In this document: positions 2,933 through 60,871 of the stretch, piece by piece
Layout of the letters: each line of letters starts with the position of its first letter
How positions within the stretch are numbered: the stretch's first letter is position 1
From: a virus
Lineage: Duplodnaviria > Caudoviricetes
Direction: 5' to 3' (one strand)
DNA length: 64,000 nucleotides
IMG/VR virus record: IMGVR_UViG_3300025389_001063
Translations under genes and position numbers: made by a program
Notes under the pieces: model-generated
Databases searched by the model: none
What the model saw: the letters and a program-made list of their open reading frames with translations, nothing else
Told to the model about the DNA's origin: nothing

Positions 2933-4747
2933 ATGAAAAAATGGAAAAGATATATACCATGGATTACTTTTGCTGTAGTTGCAGGTTTACTATTTGCAAT
3001 GTGGCAAAACCAAGAAAAACACCCAGATATTAGAGAAATTAATTTTAGTGATTTCTTAGTTCAAATCGATGAAGGGCGTGTACACGATGTCACAATTGAA
3101 GGAAATGAAGTTACAGGTCATTTTACTGACAATCGTACATTTGAAACATATCTACCAAGCGGACACACAATTATACCTAAACTAGAAGCAAAGAAAGTTC
3201 AAATTACAGCAAAACCTATAGGTGGAGAAAGTATATGGACTACTCTAGCATCTAACATTTTACCTTTAATTATTTTTATGTTTGTTTGGTTCTGGCTAGC
3301 AAGATCAATGACTGGTCGAGGAGGCGGCGGCGCTATGGGATTTGGAAAATCTAAAGCGAAATTACTCGAAACACAAGGAACAGTTAAATTTGACGATGTT
3401 GCTGGTGTTGATGAAGCAAAAGAAGATTTACAAGAAGTTGTTGAATTTCTTCGTGAACCTAATAAATTCCAATTAGTTGGTGGAAAAATACCGAGAGGCG
3501 TTCTGCTAGTCGGACCACCTGGTACAGGTAAAACATTACTTGCTAGAGCAGTAGCAGGTGAAGCAGGTGTACCATTCTTTAGTATTTCTGGTTCAGACTT
3601 TGTAGAAATGTTTGTTGGTGTTGGTGCTAGTCGTGTTCGTGACATGTTTGAACAAGCAAAGAAAAATGCTCCATGCATTATCTTTGTTGACGAAGTTGAT
3701 GCTGTTGGTAGACATCGCGGCGCGGGATTAGGCGGAGGAAACGACGAACGTGAACAAACACTTAATCAATTACTTGTTGAGATGGATGGCTTTAATGAAA
3801 ATGAAGGAATTATTATTATTGCAGCAACAAACAGAGTTGACGTATTAGATCCTGCCCTACTTCGTCCAGGTCGCTTTGATCGTCAAATTACTGTTCCTAA
3901 TCCAGACTTTATCGGACGTGAAAAGATCTTAAAGGTTCATACACGTAAAGTTCCTTTGTCTCCAGATGTTGATCTTAAAGTTGTAGCAAGAGGAACACCT
4001 GGATTTAGTGGTGCTGACTTAATGAATCTTGTTAATGAGGCTGCATTACTTGCTGCTCGTCGTGGTAAAAGAATTGTTATGAAGAAAGAGTTTGAAGATG
4101 CTCGAGATAAGATTCTTATGGGAGCAGAACGTCGTACACTATTAATGACTGAAGAAGAAAAGAAAATGACTGCTTATCACGAAGGTGGACATGCTCTTGT
4201 TAGTCTTAACATGCCAGGTTCTACGCCAATTCATAAAGCAACGATCATTCCACGTGGTCGTGCTTTAGGTATGGTCCAGTCATTACCTGAACGTGATGAG
4301 ATTAGTCAAACATATGAACAATTTATTGCTATGTTAGCAATGGCAATGGGAGGGCGTGTTGCTGAAGAATTAATTTTTGGACACGATAAGGTAAGTTCAG
4401 GTGCTGCTGGTGATATCCAACAAGCAACCAAGATTGCTCGTGCTATGGTTACACAACTTGGATTTAGTGACAAACTTGGAACAGTTGCTTATAGTGAACC
4501 ACAACACGAACAGTTCCTTGGATACTCAATGGGTCGTGAACAATCTGTATCACAAGAAACCCAAAAGACTATCGATCATGAAGTTCGTCGCTTTATTCAA
4601 GAAGGATATGAAACAGCAAAGAAGATCTTAACTGAGAAGAGAGATCAACTTGACAAACTTGCAGAAGCTCTTATAATGTATGAGACACTAAGCGGTCAAG
4701 AGATAATCGATCTTTTGGACGGTAAGGAACCAGTCAGGGAGTCTTAA
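2933..4747 (+). CDS. ftsH: ATP-dependent zinc metalloprotease FtsH
   Basis: Two TM segments, GPPGTGKT Walker A, IIFVDEVD Walker B, SRH ([20 protein letters not shown]), HEGGH Zn motif. Confidence 0.98.
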
Positions 4748-5241
4748 TGACTATCTTTGTAATTTCGGACACACACTTTGGACATGCTAACATTCTGAAA
4801 TTTACAAGACAGGATGGCAGTCCAATGCGTGTCTTTGAATCAGTGGAGCATATGAATGAAACAATGGTTGAAAACTGGAATCGAGTTGTCACCGACAGCG
4901 ATATTGTCTATCATCTTGGCGATGTTTATTTTGGGAAGGGTCACGAGATACTTGGTCGGCTAAAAGGTCGTAAGCGTCTTATCCTCGGAAATCATGATAA
5001 CGGCAAGTGCCAGAATTTACACAAACATTTCCAGAAGATTATGATGTGGAGAATGTTTCCAGAATTTAATTGTCTGCTAACTCATGTACCTGTTCATGCA
5101 AGTGTACTTTATAAGACAAAGTATAACCTACACGGACATGTACATCATAATAGTCTTCCTGAAGAAAACTACATTAATTGTTGTGTAGAACCCTTAAACT
5201 TTACTCCTACTCCTTTGGAATCTTTAATTCCAAAGGAATAA
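4747..5241 (+). CDS. Calcineurin-like metallophosphoesterase
   Basis: SDTHFGH, HLGDV, GNHD and HGHVH motifs. Confidence 0.9.
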   Translation: MTIFVISDTHFGHANILKFTRQDGSPMRVFESVEHMNETMVENWNRVVTDSDIVYHLGDVYFGKGHEILGRLKGRKRLILGNHDNGKCQNLHKHFQKIMMWRMFPEFNCLLTHVPVHASVLYKTKYNLHGHVHHNSLPEENYINCCVEPLNFTPTPLESLIPKE

Positions 5242-8859: not shown

Positions 8860-9369
8860 ATGCCGTTCAAATCAAAATTATCTAAATGTAAATTAGTTAT
8901 TACCGATGTAGATGGGGTACTTACAGATGGTAGAATCTATTATACAGAGCATGGTGAAACAATGAAGGAGTTTCATGCTCGAGATGGTTTTGGTGTTATA
9001 ATGTTACAAAAGATGGAAATTAAAACGGCAGTTATAAGTGGACTCGGTTCTGAGGCTTTACAAAAACGAGTTTCCGATTTAGGTATTGAATATAGTTTTT
9101 ATCATGTAAAAGATAAATCTGCGATATGTAAAACACTTATGGAAAATTTATCTCTTCATCCAAATGAGGTAATTTGTATTGGTGATGAAATAATAGATCT
9201 TCCAATGTTTGAAGTTTGTGGAACATCTTTTGCTGTAAATGATGCTCCAATATACATAAAAGAAAAAGCCGAAAGAGTTCTTTTTTCGAATGGTGGAAGA
9301 GGAGCGTTTCGAGAAGTAGTAGATGAGATAGTAAAAGCAAAAGGGTTGCCTTTCGAACACTTTGTTTAA
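8860..9369 (+). CDS. kdsC: 3-deoxy-D-manno-octulosonate 8-phosphate phosphatase (YrbI/KdsC, HAD family)
   Basis: ITDVDGVLTDG, F.ARDGFG, AVISG, IGDEIID and GGRGAFREVVD.I motifs. Confidence 0.88.
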   Translation: MPFKSKLSKCKLVITDVDGVLTDGRIYYTEHGETMKEFHARDGFGVIMLQKMEIKTAVISGLGSEALQKRVSDLGIEYSFYHVKDKSAICKTLMENLSLHPNEVICIGDEIIDLPMFEVCGTSFAVNDAPIYIKEKAERVLFSNGGRGAFREVVDEIVKAKGLPFEHFV

Positions 9370-9459: not shown

Positions 9460-9485
9460 TGGGGTATCGTCTAATGGTAGGACAG
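9460..9485 (+). pseudogene. 5' fragment of a tRNA (Gln-like): acceptor 5' strand plus D-arm only
   Basis: TGGGGTA-TC-GTCTAATGGTAGGAC-AG resembles the start of bacterial tRNA-Gln (TGGGGTATCG...). It stops at the base of the anticodon stem. Confidence 0.7.
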
Positions 9486-9497: not shown

Positions 9498-10037
9498 ATG
9501 TTATCCAAAAATATTGATGAAAATTTAATTAAAGAATTATTAGATAGCGGAAAGACTAATAAAGAGATTTCTTTTATTCTAGATATTTCGGCACCAACTG
9601 TTACATATTGGAGAAAGAAACTTAAAAAAGGATTATCAATAAAAAGATACAATTGGAAAGAAATACAAGAAGCACACAATAATGGATCTTCTTATTCAAA
9701 TTTAAGAAAAGAATTTGGTGTAACTAAACGGTCAATCGAAATGGCTAAGAAGAGGGGAGATTTTAGTACAAGAAAAATTCCTTGTATGGATCCGGAACAA
9801 GCAAAATTAAGAAAAAGAAATAGAAGAGAAGCATGGATGAGATATCATAGCCGAAAGAAATATCAGACTCCCGCCGACGAAGATATAAAAAAACTACAAG
9901 AATTTTATGCTAACTGTCCACCTGGATACGAAGTCGATCATATTATACCAATTTCTAAGGGAGGATTACATTCAATATCTAATTTACAATATTTAACAAA
10001 ATCTGAAAATCGTGCTAAAAGTAATAAAATAATTTAA
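9498..10037 (+). CDS. HNH homing endonuclease with N-terminal HTH-like region
   Basis: CPPGYEVDHIIPISKGGLHSISNLQYLTKSENRAKSN HNH core. N-terminal EISFILDISAPTVTYW is HTH-like. Probable ATG 9498. Confidence 0.85.
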   Translation: MLSKNIDENLIKELLDSGKTNKEISFILDISAPTVTYWRKKLKKGLSIKRYNWKEIQEAHNNGSSYSNLRKEFGVTKRSIEMAKKRGDFSTRKIPCMDPEQAKLRKRNRREAWMRYHSRKKYQTPADEDIKKLQEFYANCPPGYEVDHIIPISKGGLHSISNLQYLTKSENRAKSNKII

Positions 10038-10112
10038 TGGGGAGTGGTGCAATGGTAGTCACGTCGGACTTTGACTCCGAAAATGATCGTTCGAGTCGAT
10101 CCTCCCCAGCCA
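10038..10112 (+). tRNA. tRNA-Gln(TTG)
   Basis: Cloverleaf starting immediately after the HNH stop codon, anticodon loop CTTTGAC, encoded CCA. Confidence 0.93.
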
Positions 10113-10114
10113 AA

Positions 10115-10122
10115 TATAAATA
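10115..10122 (+). promoter_or_regulatory. T4-type late promoter
   Basis: Exact TATAAATA, 6 nt upstream of the interrupted tRNA-Gly. Confidence 0.55.
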
Positions 10123-10128
10123 CCTCAT

Positions 10129-10227
10129 GCGGGTGTAACTCAGAGGTAGAGTTCTTGCTTGCCTGAAGACATTAAGGTGTCTTGAATAAGCAAGATGTCG
10201 AGGGTTCGAATCCCTTCGCCCGCTCCA
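10129..10227 (+). tRNA. tRNA-Gly(GCC) with a 24-nt insertion (possible intron) in the anticodon loop
   Basis: GCGGGTG/CGCCCGC acceptor stem with U73 and CCA (Gly identity); intact D and T arms; stem CTTGC/GCAAG. Removing 10164-10187 restores loop TTGCCAA. Confidence 0.85.
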
Positions 10228-10266: not shown

Positions 10267-10311
10267 TATAATTGTAAGGTGAGTGAAAGACTTACTATTA
10301 TGGAGATTGAG

Positions 10312-11667
10312 ATGAGCAAGTCTAAAGACATAACGAAGACTCCGTTTGACCCTAGTGAAGGTTGGAAAAGTCGCAAAGTGCCTTTGGTTCAGGTTGCTAG
10401 AAATATTAATAAAAGATTAAAAATTAAAAAGCCAAATACTTCTTTTAATTATAAAGATGTGTTAAAATTTGATTGGGTACCTGTTAAGAAATGTATTCTT
10501 AATTATGACCGGCAGAGATATCCAGAGCCAACTCACATTGAAAAATTGTTGATTAAATGGAATATTATTTGTGCTACCCCTTTACAGGCTAGATATAGTA
10601 AAGAAGAAGATTTGTATTATATTGCAGACGGGCAACAACACGGTATTGGTTGGGTTTTGCAATATGGTGAAGATAGTCTTGTTCCAGTTTGTTATGTTGA
10701 GAGTGAAGATGAAAATATTGAATCTATTCAACTTCTTGCTCTCAATACTGATTCTGAACCTATGGCAAAGTATTTTATCCATAAGCAGAAATGTATAATG
10801 GGAGATGCTGAGTCTATTGCTCTCGAGAATACAGTCGTTAATGCCGGATGTTCAACTGGATATAACAAGAGGGCGCCTGGCGTTATTACTCTTATCAATG
10901 ACTTACTGATTGCTCAAAAGGATTATGGATTAGAAGATCTAGGAAAAGTTCTTTCTTTTATGAGGAGACATTTTCCTACTGAAAAAATTCATACTGCTAA
11001 TATGTTAGGGTTTCTTAAAGTTAAAGAACTTCTTACACTCGAACAGAAGTATAGTGATACACTGTTTGAGGATATCTTTAATGCATCTACTGATTACTTC
11101 GATGCAGGTGATGCCTTACATAACAATATTAAAAGAGAATTTGAAATTTTATATCCAACAAATTACAGAGGCATGGGAGTTAGAGAAAAAGTTGCTAGTG
11201 GAATTATTAGTATCTATGAAAAAATCGAAGGGAAAGAACTTTGTTCAAAACCCTTTAATGTAGATATGCCTTATAATAAAAATATACCTAACTACGATCC
11301 TAGCACTTATCATACTTGGAAATTATATCGTACCGTTTGTAAAACTGAGGACTTCCGTCCAGTTTGGGCTCACAAAAATGCAGATAAATGGGGGGTAGAA
11401 TACAATGACTTTCTTCCTCTTTGTCACGATACTTGTTCTTGCTGTGGTAGTGAACTTGACTATGGTTTAGGGAAAAATAATAATAATAAGTTAGATGAAA
11501 ATACTCCTTCAACTGATCATCGTATTCCTCGTAGTAAGGGAGGAACAAATGATGTAACTAATCTTCAGGTTATATGTATGAAATGTAACACATTAAAAAG
11601 TAATTCTACTCCTGATGATATTCCACGATACAAGAAGATTATCGAGATGCACGAGAGTGTCAACTAA
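10312..11667 (+). CDS. ParB/Srx-like (DUF6551-type) N-terminal domain fused to a C-terminal HNH nuclease
   Basis: NYDRQR...YYIADGQQH in the N-terminal part. CSCCG..STDHRIPRSKGGTNDVTNLQVICMKCNTLKS at the C-terminus. Track start 10279 (GTG); GGAG RBS favours ATG 10312. Confidence 0.65.
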   Translation: MSKSKDITKTPFDPSEGWKSRKVPLVQVARNINKRLKIKKPNTSFNYKDVLKFDWVPVKKCILNYDRQRYPEPTHIEKLLIKWNIICATPLQARYSKEEDLYYIADGQQHGIGWVLQYGEDSLVPVCYVESEDENIESIQLLALNTDSEPMAKYFIHKQKCIMGDAESIALENTVVNAGCSTGYNKRAPGVITLINDLLIAQKDYGLEDLGKVLSFMRRHFPTEKIHTANMLGFLKVKELLTLEQKYSDTLFEDIFNASTDYFDAGDALHNNIKREFEILYPTNYRGMGVREKVASGIISIYEKIEGKELCSKPFNVDMPYNKNIPNYDPSTYHTWKLYRTVCKTEDFRPVWAHKNADKWGVEYNDFLPLCHDTCSCCGSELDYGLGKNNNNKLDENTPSTDHRIPRSKGGTNDVTNLQVICMKCNTLKSNSTPDDIPRYKKIIEMHESVN

Positions 11668-48519: not shown

Positions 48520-50469
48520 ATGACACAACAAATTATTAATATAGGTAGCGGAGAATTAGCAGGTGACGGAGAAACACTTCGTTCGGCATTTTCAAAGATT
48601 AATGAAAACTTTAACGATCTCTATTCGAATGAATTTAATGTAATAGTAAGTGATATTACTCCTAATAATTCAAGTACAGGTGAATTGTGGTTTAGTAGTC
48701 TCGATGGTAGATTGTATGTTTATTACGACACTACTTGGGTTGATGCTAATCCATCATCAAATGTTACAAATAAATTAACTAGTCCAGACACTAGCAAAAT
48801 TGTAGTTTTAGATAATAGTGGTAATTTAACGTTGCCAAGTGGTGGTATTATTAAAAATCACGATGGTACACAATATGGCAGTAGTATTGATACTGGATCA
48901 TTCCATTTTGATGGAAACACTCTAAACAGTAGCGGCATTAGTATGCAGTTAGTACCAGACGACGAAGGTGCTACATATATTGTTATTCCATCAAACGCTT
49001 ATGGAGAATTACAGCCTCTTACTATTGCTAATGGCTTAGGAGAGGTTGATATTGTATCCGCAGGAGGACAGTGGACATTTGGACATGATGGTGTATTAGC
49101 ATTAGCAGGCGATTTAAACTTTATATACGGTGGTGCTATATTTGAAGGCGGACATGGTATAGCAGGTCGTAGTTGGAGAACAGGATTAAACATTGTAGGT
49201 AGTCAGACTACACCAACAGACCCAATACGCATTTATCCAGCAGGCGAAGACGGCAAAGGTTTTGGCATGGGCACAGTCAATGTTAAAAACGATTGTGTTG
49301 AGATTTATGGTAATAATCAAGGCGACGGCAATGGTGTTAAGTGGACATTTGCTCATGATGGTACATTAACATTACCATCTAACGGTAATTTGAATTTTGG
49401 ACAACCTTCTATAAGAGCACCTAATGTTTCATATAAAAACGAATTAATAACATTATATGATTTTCAAAATTTAGGACATGAAATAAATTACGGTATCGGA
49501 GTTGAGAATCACAATATATGGATGGCGGTTGATGCTTCAACAGCAGGATTTAAATGGTATGCTGGTGAAACTTCAATATTACAACTAAACGGTGACGGAA
49601 CTATTTCGTTCTTAAACAATACATTAAAGACACCTGTAAGTTCTGGGGCATATATTGATGGTATATCCTCAATATCTTTAGAAACACCATTTACTAATCC
49701 TTTAATATTTGCGGGACAACCTGCTACATGGGTTACTAATGGCTTAAAGATTGTAATATCTGGAGTTTCAATACCTAGTGAAGTAAATGGAACTTGGTAT
49801 ATTCAAAGTTATAATAGTTATGGATTTAGAATATTCCACGATGCGGCACTAACACAGCCAGTTGACGCAAGTAGTTGGTCAGGATATACTGGCGGTGGAC
49901 AAATTTTTTACGCCCCAACTTCATCAAACCTTAACGTAGATATAAATTCAAATGTTTGGACATTTGGCACAGACGGTACACTTAATCTTCCACTATTAGT
50001 AACTAGTAACGCAATTATTCAAACACCAGGCACTATAACTCTTAAAGCCATAAATGCTAATTTCAACTTTGGGTGGGATGGTAGTTTAACACTTCCTGGA
50101 TTAATTTTAGCCAAACAGGGATTACCAGGTACTAATGCTGGTTATAGTTTCGGCGGTACTGAAGGTGGTAGCGATACTGGTATGTTTAGTAACCAAGATG
50201 GACACTTAAAATTCTACACTAATAATAGATTAGTGTCTGAACTTACAGATAATGATACTCATTTATATGTTTACTCTGCTGATTATAATACTACTTACGA
50301 TTGGCATTTTGATAGAACAGGTGAATTAACCGTACCAACAGGTGGAACTATTTCATATTCACCAACAACTCCAAGTAATTGGAACGGTACCGCACCCACT
50401 ACAATACAAGAAGCATTAGATAGAATAGCCGCACTACTTAAAACACTAAATGGTGGTGTTGGTGCTTAA
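48520..50469 (+). CDS. Tail fibre-like protein
   Basis: gp9-like N-terminus (QQIINIGSGELAGDGETLRSAFSKINENF), GELWF..DGRLYVYY..WVDA and repeated W.F..DG.L.LP motifs. Confidence 0.75.
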   Translation: MTQQIINIGSGELAGDGETLRSAFSKINENFNDLYSNEFNVIVSDITPNNSSTGELWFSSLDGRLYVYYDTTWVDANPSSNVTNKLTSPDTSKIVVLDNSGNLTLPSGGIIKNHDGTQYGSSIDTGSFHFDGNTLNSSGISMQLVPDDEGATYIVIPSNAYGELQPLTIANGLGEVDIVSAGGQWTFGHDGVLALAGDLNFIYGGAIFEGGHGIAGRSWRTGLNIVGSQTTPTDPIRIYPAGEDGKGFGMGTVNVKNDCVEIYGNNQGDGNGVKWTFAHDGTLTLPSNGNLNFGQPSIRAPNVSYKNELITLYDFQNLGHEINYGIGVENHNIWMAVDASTAGFKWYAGETSILQLNGDGTISFLNNTLKTPVSSGAYIDGISSISLETPFTNPLIFAGQPATWVTNGLKIVISGVSIPSEVNGTWYIQSYNSYGFRIFHDAALTQPVDASSWSGYTGGGQIFYAPTSSNLNVDINSNVWTFGTDGTLNLPLLVTSNAIIQTPGTITLKAINANFNFGWDGSLTLPGLILAKQGLPGTNAGYSFGGTEGGSDTGMFSNQDGHLKFYTNNRLVSELTDNDTHLYVYSADYNTTYDWHFDRTGELTVPTGGTISYSPTTPSNWNGTAPTTIQEALDRIAALLKTLNGGVGA

Positions 50470-58837: not shown

Positions 58838-60871
58838 ATGTTTTTAAGAGAATTCTTTTATAGATCAAACCCAATTATTATTGAAGGTGGTAATGTACAA
58901 ATTGGCCCGCACAGTGCGGAAAGAATCAATTTGAAGAAAATTCCACGCAATCAAATTGTTCCGATTATTGACAATCTATTACATTCAGTCAATTCTGCTT
59001 TCCAATCAAAATTTAAGACTCCACTTTGGTCGCCACAACTACTACAGAAAAAAGAATTCCTCAGTGGATCGGCATTTCACTTTCTCAATCCAGGAATTCC
59101 AGATGAAAAATTTGTTCAACATAAACCTAGTGTTGGAGATATTGACACAATGGTTGATAAAAATAAAAGAGAACAAGTAGAACAATTTTTAAATTCAGTT
59201 ACAAACAAAAAGATTGGTCCTGCTACATTACTTGGCTTTAAACCTAATCCTGGAGGTGATCAATTTATTACATTATGGGAATTCAGTGAGCCACCAATCA
59301 AGATACAAATTGATTTAGAACTTGTAGAATTCCACGGTGCTGGTCCAAGTGAATGGTCAAAGTTTAGTCACTCTAGTGATTGGGCAGACCTCGAAGCAGG
59401 TGTTAAAGGAGTATTCCACAAATACTTATTAAGAGCATTTACTACAAATACTCTCAAAGATCGTCTCGTACAAATGAAAACAAAACTTAAACCAGTTAAG
59501 AGTACAGACGTTGCCTTTGCTGTTACTGGTGGTATGAGAGAAAAATATAAACCAGTTTTAGATGCTAATGGTAAACAAAAAGTTGTAGACGGGTTACCTG
59601 TATATACAGAAGTTCCAGCAAAAGACTCAACATATGTTAATTCAACAGAAGGCATGTTTGAATTAATATTTGGTAAACCACCGGTAGGAGGAGAAGAAAA
59701 ACTCCTCGGTTCATTTATAGGTGGATTACAATTAGCAAACAAATATCTTGATGATGAACATAAAAAGTTATTGCTAGATGGTTTTGTTAATACACTATTT
59801 GGACAAACTGCTCAAGAACTTTATAAAGGTGATCCAGAATCAGATCGTGCTGAAAAAGAAGTTGCTCTCAAAACTATGCTTGAAAAATTAGGCATGAAGA
59901 TGGACACAAATATACAGCAAATGGAAAAGTCTTTTTACAGTAATTATAAAATGGATGAAGAATTAGACGAAGAGGAAGTTGTTTCAAGTCGTCGTACAGG
60001 AATTAGCCATCTACAAGGTATGAAAGATTTAGAGTTTATTGAACTTATTAAGAAAATTAAAAACGAATATCAAGGTAAATTAAGCAACGTAAAGATGACT
60101 CTTAAAGTTGATGGTCTCGGTGCTCGCTTTGGTAAAGACGCAGAAGGTCGTCCATTTTTTGAAAGTTCAAGAAGCGGACCAATCTTTACAGCAGGTTCAT
60201 TTATATCACATGCTAAAAGCAGAGGATTTGAAGGTGAAAAACTTGCTCGTGCTGAAAAGTATGACGAAATTTATAACCTAGTCGTTAACAGTGACTTTGT
60301 TAAGAAGTTACCTAATGATATTAAAATTCATTGTGAGATACTTTATAATCCAATGGCAGAAGAAACAGAGAATGGCTTGAAGTTTGTCACAGTTTCTTAT
60401 GATAGAAAACTACTAGGCGAAGTAATGACTATTGTTCCATTCTACGCAGAAGTTGCTTCTACTGGACAAAAGTATTCTAAGAGTGAACAAATTAAAGACG
60501 AACTAATTAGATCTGGTAGTGGTAATGGTATTAAATTTGTTGATGACAGATTAATGTCAGACACTATCGATATTACTGGCGAAATTGATCCATTACTAAC
60601 AATGATCAACGATCGCTTTATTGCTAAACTTACATCAAGAACTAAAGCAGACGCTGAAGAAAAGTCGCAACTAAAGGCTATGGTTCAAAGTGTTAAGGAC
60701 AATTTGGCAGATTATATCTTTAGACATCCAAGCATTGCTGGTAAAGATAAATTGGGCAAAGACATTGAAGGTATTATACTTCATAGAGATAAAGAAGCCC
60801 CACTAAAGATCACTACTCCAGATTTTAAGCAAGCAATCGCAGCAAAGAAGAACCCAAATGTTGTTAAGTGA
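58838..60871 (+). CDS. Two-domain protein: Pol-beta-type nucleotidyltransferase plus ligase-like (KxDG) domain
   Basis: LSGS...VGDIDTMVD...IQIDLE in the N-half. TLKVDG, HCEILY, DIEGIIL and LKIT in the C-half. Acidic linker DEELDEEE. Confidence 0.55.
   Translation: MFLREFFYRSNPIIIEGGNVQIGPHSAERINLKKIPRNQIVPIIDNLLHSVNSAFQSKFKTPLWSPQLLQKKEFLSGSAFHFLNPGIPDEKFVQHKPSVGDIDTMVDKNKREQVEQFLNSVTNKKIGPATLLGFKPNPGGDQFITLWEFSEPPIKIQIDLELVEFHGAGPSEWSKFSHSSDWADLEAGVKGVFHKYLLRAFTTNTLKDRLVQMKTKLKPVKSTDVAFAVTGGMREKYKPVLDANGKQKVVDGLPVYTEVPAKDSTYVNSTEGMFELIFGKPPVGGEEKLLGSFIGGLQLANKYLDDEHKKLLLDGFVNTLFGQTAQELYKGDPESDRAEKEVALKTMLEKLGMKMDTNIQQMEKSFYSNYKMDEELDEEEVVSSRRTGISHLQGMKDLEFIELIKKIKNEYQGKLSNVKMTLKVDGLGARFGKDAEGRPFFESSRSGPIFTAGSFISHAKSRGFEGEKLARAEKYDEIYNLVVNSDFVKKLPNDIKIHCEILYNPMAEETENGLKFVTVSYDRKLLGEVMTIVPFYAEVASTGQKYSKSEQIKDELIRSGSGNGIKFVDDRLMSDTIDITGEIDPLLTMINDRFIAKLTSRTKADAEEKSQLKAMVQSVKDNLADYIFRHPSIAGKDKLGKDIEGIILHRDKEAPLKITTPDFKQAIAAKKNPNVVK

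Follow-up and report, generated by a model that had tools for sequence, protein, structure and literature searches.

An uncultured jumbo phage carries a true tRNA-Gly(GCC) gene whose anticodon loop is interrupted by a 24-nt palindromic insert, placed exactly between C36 and A37, fixed in one clonal phage lineage and absent from all relatives. The window (the whole stretch of DNA that was analysed, 64,000 nt in length) is part of a 107-kb IMG/VR viral record with a CheckV completeness of 28%, and its sequence is also found on two ENA contigs, one of 351 kb (ERZ27272004, k141_182421) and one of 198 kb. The G+C content of the genome is 35% and its nearest cultured relatives, for example PA5oct-like jumbo phages, are only ~30% identical at the protein level. 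A megablast search of the region against cultured phages returned no match, and distant blastn matched only generic tRNA pieces.

With no match to an intron class and no further copies, the insert is most likely a young, lineage-specific inactivating insertion, which has left a non-decoding but not yet decayed tRNA gene; we put the chance of this being the correct explanation at about even. An ordinary phage tRNA-Gly(GCC) gene gained, in its DNA, an imperfect palindrome of 24 bp precisely at C36|A37, and the event was recent and is restricted to one clonal jumbo-phage lineage. The setting appears to be a tRNA array that has been repeatedly cut and rebuilt by HNH endonuclease cassettes. The predicted transcript is a correct cloverleaf with an anticodon arm of 41 nt, and it should be unable to decode as encoded, because the anticodon would be buried in an internal loop. 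The insert would stay in the RNA, and nuclease-triggered repair may have produced it. If the insert is indeed not spliced, the gene would provide a dated snapshot of the death of a phage tRNA gene inside a nuclease-driven mosaic tRNA array, and a warning that an intron-like shape alone is no proof of an intron.

The interrupted tRNA-Gly(GCC) gene and its carriers

The gene (10129-10227, plus strand, 99 nt) consists of a 5' part with tRNA positions 1-36 and the anticodon GCC at its end (10129-10163), the insert (10164-10187) and a 3' part that runs from A37 through the CCA end (10188-10227); the limits of both tRNA parts come from alignments A2 and A4 and, for the 5' part, also from the exon match with two uninterrupted genes described below. 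The Rfam model RF00005 matches 10129-10224 over model positions 1-71 with 54.9 bits, for a gathering threshold of 29 bits, and leaves 28 nt unaligned, all of them in the anticodon loop. Every cloverleaf pair forms (21/21), and covariation in the tRNA-Gly family is strong, with 14 pairs double-changed across five distinct homologues and a score that none of 500 shuffles reached. The identity elements for bacterial GlyRS are U73, G1-C72, C2-G71, G3-C70, C35 and C36, all of which can be read from the sequence. A preliminary description of this DNA had recognised a tRNA-Gly(GCC) with intact arms and glycine identity, and that call is borne out. Phage-specific bases at flanking positions are A16 in the D loop and GAUGUCGAGGG following the anticodon stem. 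The codons of tRNA-Gly(GCC), GGU and GGC, make up 59% of the Gly codons of the phage. ARAGORN in its default run did not call the gene at 10129-10227; with introns allowed it proposed a tRNA-Val(TAC) with an 8-nt intron, which was rejected for its mismatched stems and because it contradicts both the Rfam alignment and the orthologues.

The minimum free energy (MFE) fold of the 99-nt RNA is a cloverleaf (-38.5 kcal/mol, z = -3.7) and none of 200 shuffles folded as well. Its anticodon arm is composed of an outer 7-bp stem (CUUGCUU/AAGCAAG), an internal loop of 5 nt x 4 nt (GCCUG/GAAU) and, at the tip, a second 7-bp helix that closes the hairpin AAGACAU-UAAG-GUGUCUU, the same hairpin that the preliminary description had drawn. 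A decoding-competent arm has a 7-nt anticodon loop on a 5-bp stem; here 24 nt interrupt the loop and extend the arm to 41 nt in the MFE fold.

Eleven separate JGI and ENA metagenome records, obtained from different samples, carry the identical 99-nt gene, which also lies on one Logan contig as far as 10221; samples with this phage include JGI 3300006120 and 3300003820 and ENA ERZ27272004. The insert is therefore genuine. An assembly or sequencing artefact, for which nothing speaks except that the insert is palindromic, is so improbable in the face of these records as to be negligible. The carrier records differ from the window at 0-1 positions across 1.3-6.5 kb and are thus clonal, the insert allele being fixed within one clonal jumbo-phage lineage. 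As clonal copies, these records contain no variation that would reveal selection on the insert. The earlier concern that the insert might be unique to a single assembly is in this way half answered: many assemblies carry it, but all of them belong to the one lineage.

Empty sites in relatives and the nature of the insert

Uninterrupted tRNA-Gly(GCC) genes of 74-75 nt are found in the syntenic relatives L111, L112 and L115, which have the gene order Lys-Gln-Gly ... OMP-Val in common with the window, and also in three contigs that carry the upstream HNH cassette (L119, L122 and L123). The anticodon arm of L122 is identical to that of the window minus the insert (CTTGC-TTGCCAA-GCAAG). A pattern search of IMG/VR and of genome contigs for the same anticodon arm, with 0-30 inserted nt allowed, gave matches with zero inserted bases throughout (14/14 in IMG/VR and 4/4 genome contigs). 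Alignment to uninterrupted genes with an identical anticodon arm places the insertion point uniquely between C36 and A37, and this placement cannot be shifted because the end bases of the insert differ from the adjoining exon bases. The same alignment reproduces the limits 10164-10187 that had been assigned to a structured 24-nt insert from the sequence alone. Excision of exactly 24 nt gives back the loop UUGCCAA, as in all relatives, and an alternative junction between the CTTG repeats, also put forward in the preliminary description, is contradicted by the empty-site alleles, which all read TTGCCAA. It had further been proposed to look in relatives for the same insert with a covarying stem; every relative examined has an empty site, and no stem covariation was found for the insert.

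The exons of the window match the uninterrupted genes of L147 and L154, two of the contigs matched by the pattern, both from jumbo phages and otherwise unrelated to that of the window, at 72/75 positions, and the three differences are all outside stems. With 3/75 exon differences, none of them in stems, the insertion is recent, and no selection since that event is required to explain the intact tRNA body. The compensatory changes seen at 10-25 and 50-64 were considered as lineage-specific and rejected, as they are common to L147 and L154 and predate the insert; being shared in this way, they are uninformative on post-insertion selection. As a separate observation, the two unrelated jumbo-phage contigs also contain a conserved 132-nt tRNA-like gene (L147:21-152 and L154:5329-5460), which has a good acceptor stem and T arm and a large internal insert, and which ARAGORN reads, doubtfully, as Thr(CGT) with a 42-nt intron.

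The insert (10164-10187, plus strand), an imperfect palindrome that folds into a hairpin of 7 bp capped by a UAAG loop, cannot be assigned to any intron class. The catalytic core of a group I intron is roughly 200 nt or more in length; the insert has 24 nt and gives no match to Rfam Intron_gpI, in agreement with the earlier judgement that it is too short for a group I/II intron. At the insert Rfam returned no ribozyme or intron, and nothing beyond tRNA even at E <= 1. A strict bulge-helix-bulge (BHB), that is, two 3-nt bulges with a 4-bp helix between them, is not formed, as had already been noted: the two 7-bp helices are separated by the 5 x 4 nt internal loop, the central helix could have at most two wobble pairs of the four possible, and those only if C31-G39 breaks. 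A 4-bp central helix is impossible because the loops are only 5 and 4 nt. The canonical site of protein-spliced tRNA introns is one nucleotide 3' of the anticodon (PMC4090602). The insert is located at 36/37 and not at the canonical 37/38.

A miniature mobile repeat (MITE/REP-like) is not indicated, as the insert is single-copy in 107 kb and in IMG/VR and lacks a flanking duplication. No second copy of the hairpin was found in the window, the 107-kb contig or IMG/VR; in exact scans the 18-nt hairpin core was absent from IMG/VR and the 5' half gave no match, and a loose pattern scan of IMG/VR (TTGCTTGCC, 12-40 nt, AAGCAAGA) returned chance matches only, none of them tRNA-like. Local duplication is the usual type of spontaneous insertion. 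Together with template switching it was rejected as the origin of this insert, whose matches of at least 11 nt elsewhere in 107 kb are single chance 11-mers: none of its 12-mers recurs in the 107-kb contig, the few 11-mers that do recur belong to the exons or match by chance, and its likeness to its flanks is weak.

The nuclease-rich tRNA array and the RNA-ligase-like protein

The tRNA-Gly gene is flanked by two HNH genes that are not present in syntenic relatives; the cargo of relatives at this hot spot includes other HNH genes and methylases. The upstream cassette begins with a 26-nt relic, the 5' fragment of an older tRNA-Gln (9460-9485, plus strand), recognised by sequence and by the occurrence of the same D-arm fragment in five other phage contexts. 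The relic is followed by a copy of the motif TATAAATA, by an HTH-HNH endonuclease gene (9498-10037, plus strand; Pfam HNH, HNH_4 and GerE) and by a complete, divergent replacement tRNA-Gln(UUG) (10038-10112, plus strand), which is called by both ARAGORN and Rfam, is divergent from the tRNA-Gln of L111 and is closer to that of L119. Homologues of the HTH-HNH gene lie directly 5' of a complete tRNA-Gln(UUG) in every context fetched, and the D-arm fragment GTCTAATGGTAGGAC precedes them in 5/5 contexts read upstream (L119, L121, L122, L124 and L126). Judged from this arrangement of sequences, the unit looks like a tRNA-Gln-targeting homing cassette, which would split the old tRNA-Gln near nt 26 and deliver a replacement with a changed D arm. 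From the relic fragment it follows that a tRNA gene 640 bp upstream has already been split by a cassette; in this region tRNA genes and their surroundings are routinely subject to breakage and repair of DNA. Breakage and repair linked to nucleases are a plausible origin of the foreign 24-bp palindrome. In contigs L125-L130, which represent another phage group, an 81-nt tRNA-Asn(GUU) whose variable region has 10 nt is found immediately upstream of the HNH/tRNA-Gln cassette (for example L126:596-676).

A motif 6 nt upstream of the tRNA-Gly gene, pointed out in the preliminary description, is indeed present as TATAAATA at 10115-10122 (plus strand). It is depleted in the window, with three copies observed in 64 kb (9486, 10115 and 19707, all on the plus strand) vs 13.7 expected, and two of these (9486 and 10115) bracket the HNH/tRNA-Gln cassette. 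The scarcity and strand bias fit a functional motif, and the copy at 10115-10122 is possibly a T4-late-type promoter of tRNA-Gly.

The ORF downstream of the tRNA-Gly gene (10279-11667, plus strand) combines a conserved domain of ~330 aa, to which no function is assigned, with a C-terminal HNH nuclease (Pfam HNH and HNH_5, residues 386-448). Over its N-terminal 70% the ORF shares 60-67% identity with hundreds of metagenome proteins that are ~330 aa in length and have no HNH. This family comprises hundreds of metagenome clusters, including Tara, has the common motif YYIADGQQHG and gave no match in Pfam, PHROG or NCBIfam. Among the homologues listed, the ORF of the window alone is long enough for a C-terminal HNH, and the 462-aa ORF as the query in the scan of IMG/VR relatives found none.

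Other protein genes among the tRNA genes of the window encode a small P-loop kinase, a calcineurin-like phosphoesterase and a HAD hydrolase (135-578, 4747-5241 and 8860-9369), which by their annotation are possible enzymes for the healing of RNA ends. A unit of 112 nt outside the window, situated between tRNA-Trp and tRNA-Cys (G000:C1:105969-106099, minus strand), ends in CCA and has an acceptor-like stem of 7 bp, but no T arm. A tRNA-Pro(TGG) called by ARAGORN at 50329-50409 (minus strand) is probably a false positive, with poor stems and no Rfam support.

The protein encoded at 58838, singled out in the preliminary description as a possible ligase for its KxDG motif, does have an RNA-ligase-like nucleotidyltransferase domain, which forms the C-terminal 293 aa of ORF 58838-60871 (59990-60871, plus strand). 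Direct searches with the ORF gave no Pfam or NCBIfam match and no significant match to a solved structure; two PHROGs were matched, both without an assigned function. The domain is nevertheless a member of a family of ~260 metagenome proteins. Scoring of ligase motifs I (KxDG), III, IV (EG) and V (K) in 49 homologues showed K39, D41 and G42 (KxDG), E260 and G261 (EG) and K273 to be invariant and E116 of motif III nearly so, and PF09414 (RNA_ligase) was matched by 7 of the 49. An alignment-based AlphaFold model of the domain has a pLDDT of 96; the single-sequence model, with a pLDDT of 45, was discarded in its favour. In a Foldseek search of the PDB the top 25 matches were all ATP-dependent RNA ligases, with a probability of 1.00 to Rnl5, Rnl3, Rnl1 and Rnl2 at TM scores of only 0.29-0.44. 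The motifs and the modelled fold place the C-terminal domain of this ORF in the ATP-dependent RNA ligase superfamily, with a predicted ligase activity, and the phage thus encodes a candidate RNA ligase. The N-terminal half of 58838-60871 is, as an atlas lead only, a probable Pol-beta-type nucleotidyltransferase. EndA (PF01974), RtcB (PF01139), PF09414 and PF09511 gave no match in the 107-kb record (CheckV 28% complete), so that the splicing endonuclease and RtcB genes for which a search had been advised were not encountered there. A search for RNA ligase families in fragments (6-46% complete) of the close relatives L111 and L112 and the distant relatives L113 and L114 was negative.

Alternative explanations and known systems

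An inactivating insertion agrees with the empty sites in relatives, with an insert that has no family and no known splicing signal, with its recent date and with the nuclease-rich setting. There are also observations that argue against inactivation. The insert lies in the anticodon loop, touches the anticodon and forms a clean hairpin stacked on the stem, all of which is intron-like; a random insertion is unlikely to put both junctions in one internal loop; and the insert did not arise by local duplication. In at least 11 metagenome records the allele is fixed, and as all relatives retain tRNA-Gly(GCC), the reader of 59% of Gly codons, its loss should carry some cost. Lastly, the phage has an RNA-ligase-like enzyme, with the kinase, phosphoesterase and HAD hydrolase within the array, and the enzyme searches covered 107 kb, about 30% of the genome. 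Such features lend some weight to the proposal of a new-born tRNA intron that is of a non-BHB, non-ribozyme kind and is spliced by proteins, with resealing by the ligase-like enzyme, although we consider this improbable, at perhaps one chance in five. Two staggered cuts would be made across the 5 x 4 internal loop, after C36 and before A37, by an RNase III-type enzyme or another phage or host nuclease, followed by Rnl-like sealing, a route that would be chemically coherent. In its favour, the junctions stand opposite one another in a single internal loop between two 7-bp helices, removal of exactly 24 nt restores the UUGCCAA of all relatives, a ligase-like domain and possible end-healing enzymes are encoded in the same phage, and the allele is fixed across many samples; unexplained tRNA inserts of jumbo phages have, moreover, been published (PMC6784885; PMC13037316). 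Against it, the insert is known from a single clonal lineage, with no covariation and no second example, it forms no BHB and lies at 36/37 instead of 37/38, EndA and RtcB were not found in the 107-kb record, and the cutting enzyme is purely hypothetical. RNA ligases are common tRNA-repair tools of large phages, and for this reason the ligase-like enzyme raises the probability of splicing only modestly. To our knowledge, splicing without either a BHB or a ribozyme is not known in bacteria or their viruses. If spliced, the insert would be the simplest example yet of such splicing of a tRNA in the bacterial world, and removal of a jumbo-phage tRNA 'intron' would be directly testable, with the empty allele known, a 99-nt substrate and a candidate ligase in the same genome.

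It is also conceivable, though less so than splicing, that the insert acts at the level of DNA by breaking the site of a homing or defence nuclease in the tRNA-Gly anticodon-arm sequence, tRNA function being sacrificed or rescued separately. The two HNH genes that flank tRNA-Gly, the other HNH genes of relatives at the same hot spot and the HTH-HNH family (HNH192), an example of nucleases that target tRNA genes in such arrays, are consistent with immunity of this type, and free-standing endonucleases are established in phage tRNA clusters, as in T4 SegB (PMC2330249). However, neither HNH has a known target site, HNH192 is linked to tRNA-Gln and not to tRNA-Gly, the downstream HNH, as part of a fusion with a widespread conserved protein, is not obviously a mobile cassette, and point changes would be a cheaper route to protection. 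Slightly more doubtful again is a function for the RNA in its unspliced form. With the shape of a tRNA but unable to decode, it could act as a decoy for anticodon nucleases of the host or for defences that sense tRNAs, or it could serve as a regulator. Splicing, a decoy and a conditionally activated tRNA had all been raised in the preliminary description, and all three are speculative. The intact tRNA body, the Gly identity bases, the possible promoter TATAAATA and the fixed allele are compatible with such a role, and phage tRNAs are described in PMC13096335 as targets and counter-measures in tRNA-cleaving defences. There is, however, no conservation outside one clone, and a recent insertion already explains the intact body. 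We know of no nuclease specific for tRNA-Gly(GCC). The inactivating insertion is thus retained as the preferred explanation.

The closest precedent is provided by the published 'introns' in jumbo-phage tRNAs. In Lak megaphages and other jumbo phages, tRNA introns termed 'enigmatic' are found repeatedly in different genomes, and a number of them are tRNA-like (Devoto et al. 2019, PMC6784885); jumbo-phage tRNA introns have also been reported in PMC13037316. Like these, the insert is a phage tRNA insert that is not of ribozyme size and occurs in some genomes but not in close relatives, and for both the point of excision has been deduced by alignment to the empty allele. Unlike the Lak inserts, which recur identically across cohorts, that of the window is a bare 24-nt hairpin of which all copies are clonal, and it shows presence and absence among relatives but neither recurrence in distinct genomes or tRNAs nor tRNA-likeness. 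Archaeal and eukaryal introns, removed by EndA/TSEN with RtcB or Trl1 (review PMC4090602), are similarly short, are placed beside the anticodon with a helix stacked on the anticodon stem, and resemble the insert in that an endonuclease and a ligase would be needed. The insert differs from them in its location at 36/37, in the lack of a BHB, in that EndA and RtcB were not found in the 107 kb searched, and in a host that belongs to the domain Bacteria. Group I introns of bacterial, plastid and phage tRNAs likewise interrupt a bacterial-type anticodon loop and are sporadic among relatives, unlike the insert in that this has 24 nt and no Rfam intron match.

In T4, the SegB system (PMC2330249) has nuclease genes located between phage tRNA genes, which cut the tRNA-gene DNA of relatives and lead to local gene conversion. 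The HNH192/tRNA-Gln cassette may behave like such a free-standing homing endonuclease and is comparable in logic, although SegB is a GIY-YIG enzyme and that of the window is an HNH. We are aware of no SegB-like system that leaves a hairpin within an anticodon loop. The Rnl1/Pnkp repair of T4 offers a parallel to the ligase-like enzyme and to the kinase and phosphoesterase genes of the phage, and the substrate would similarly be a nicked anticodon loop; T4 reseals one host-made cut, whereas the insert would call for two cuts and the removal of 24 nt. The ligase-like domain is common in viral metagenomes in a stand-alone form of ~300 aa, and in other proteins it forms part of fusion chains as long as 2000 aa.
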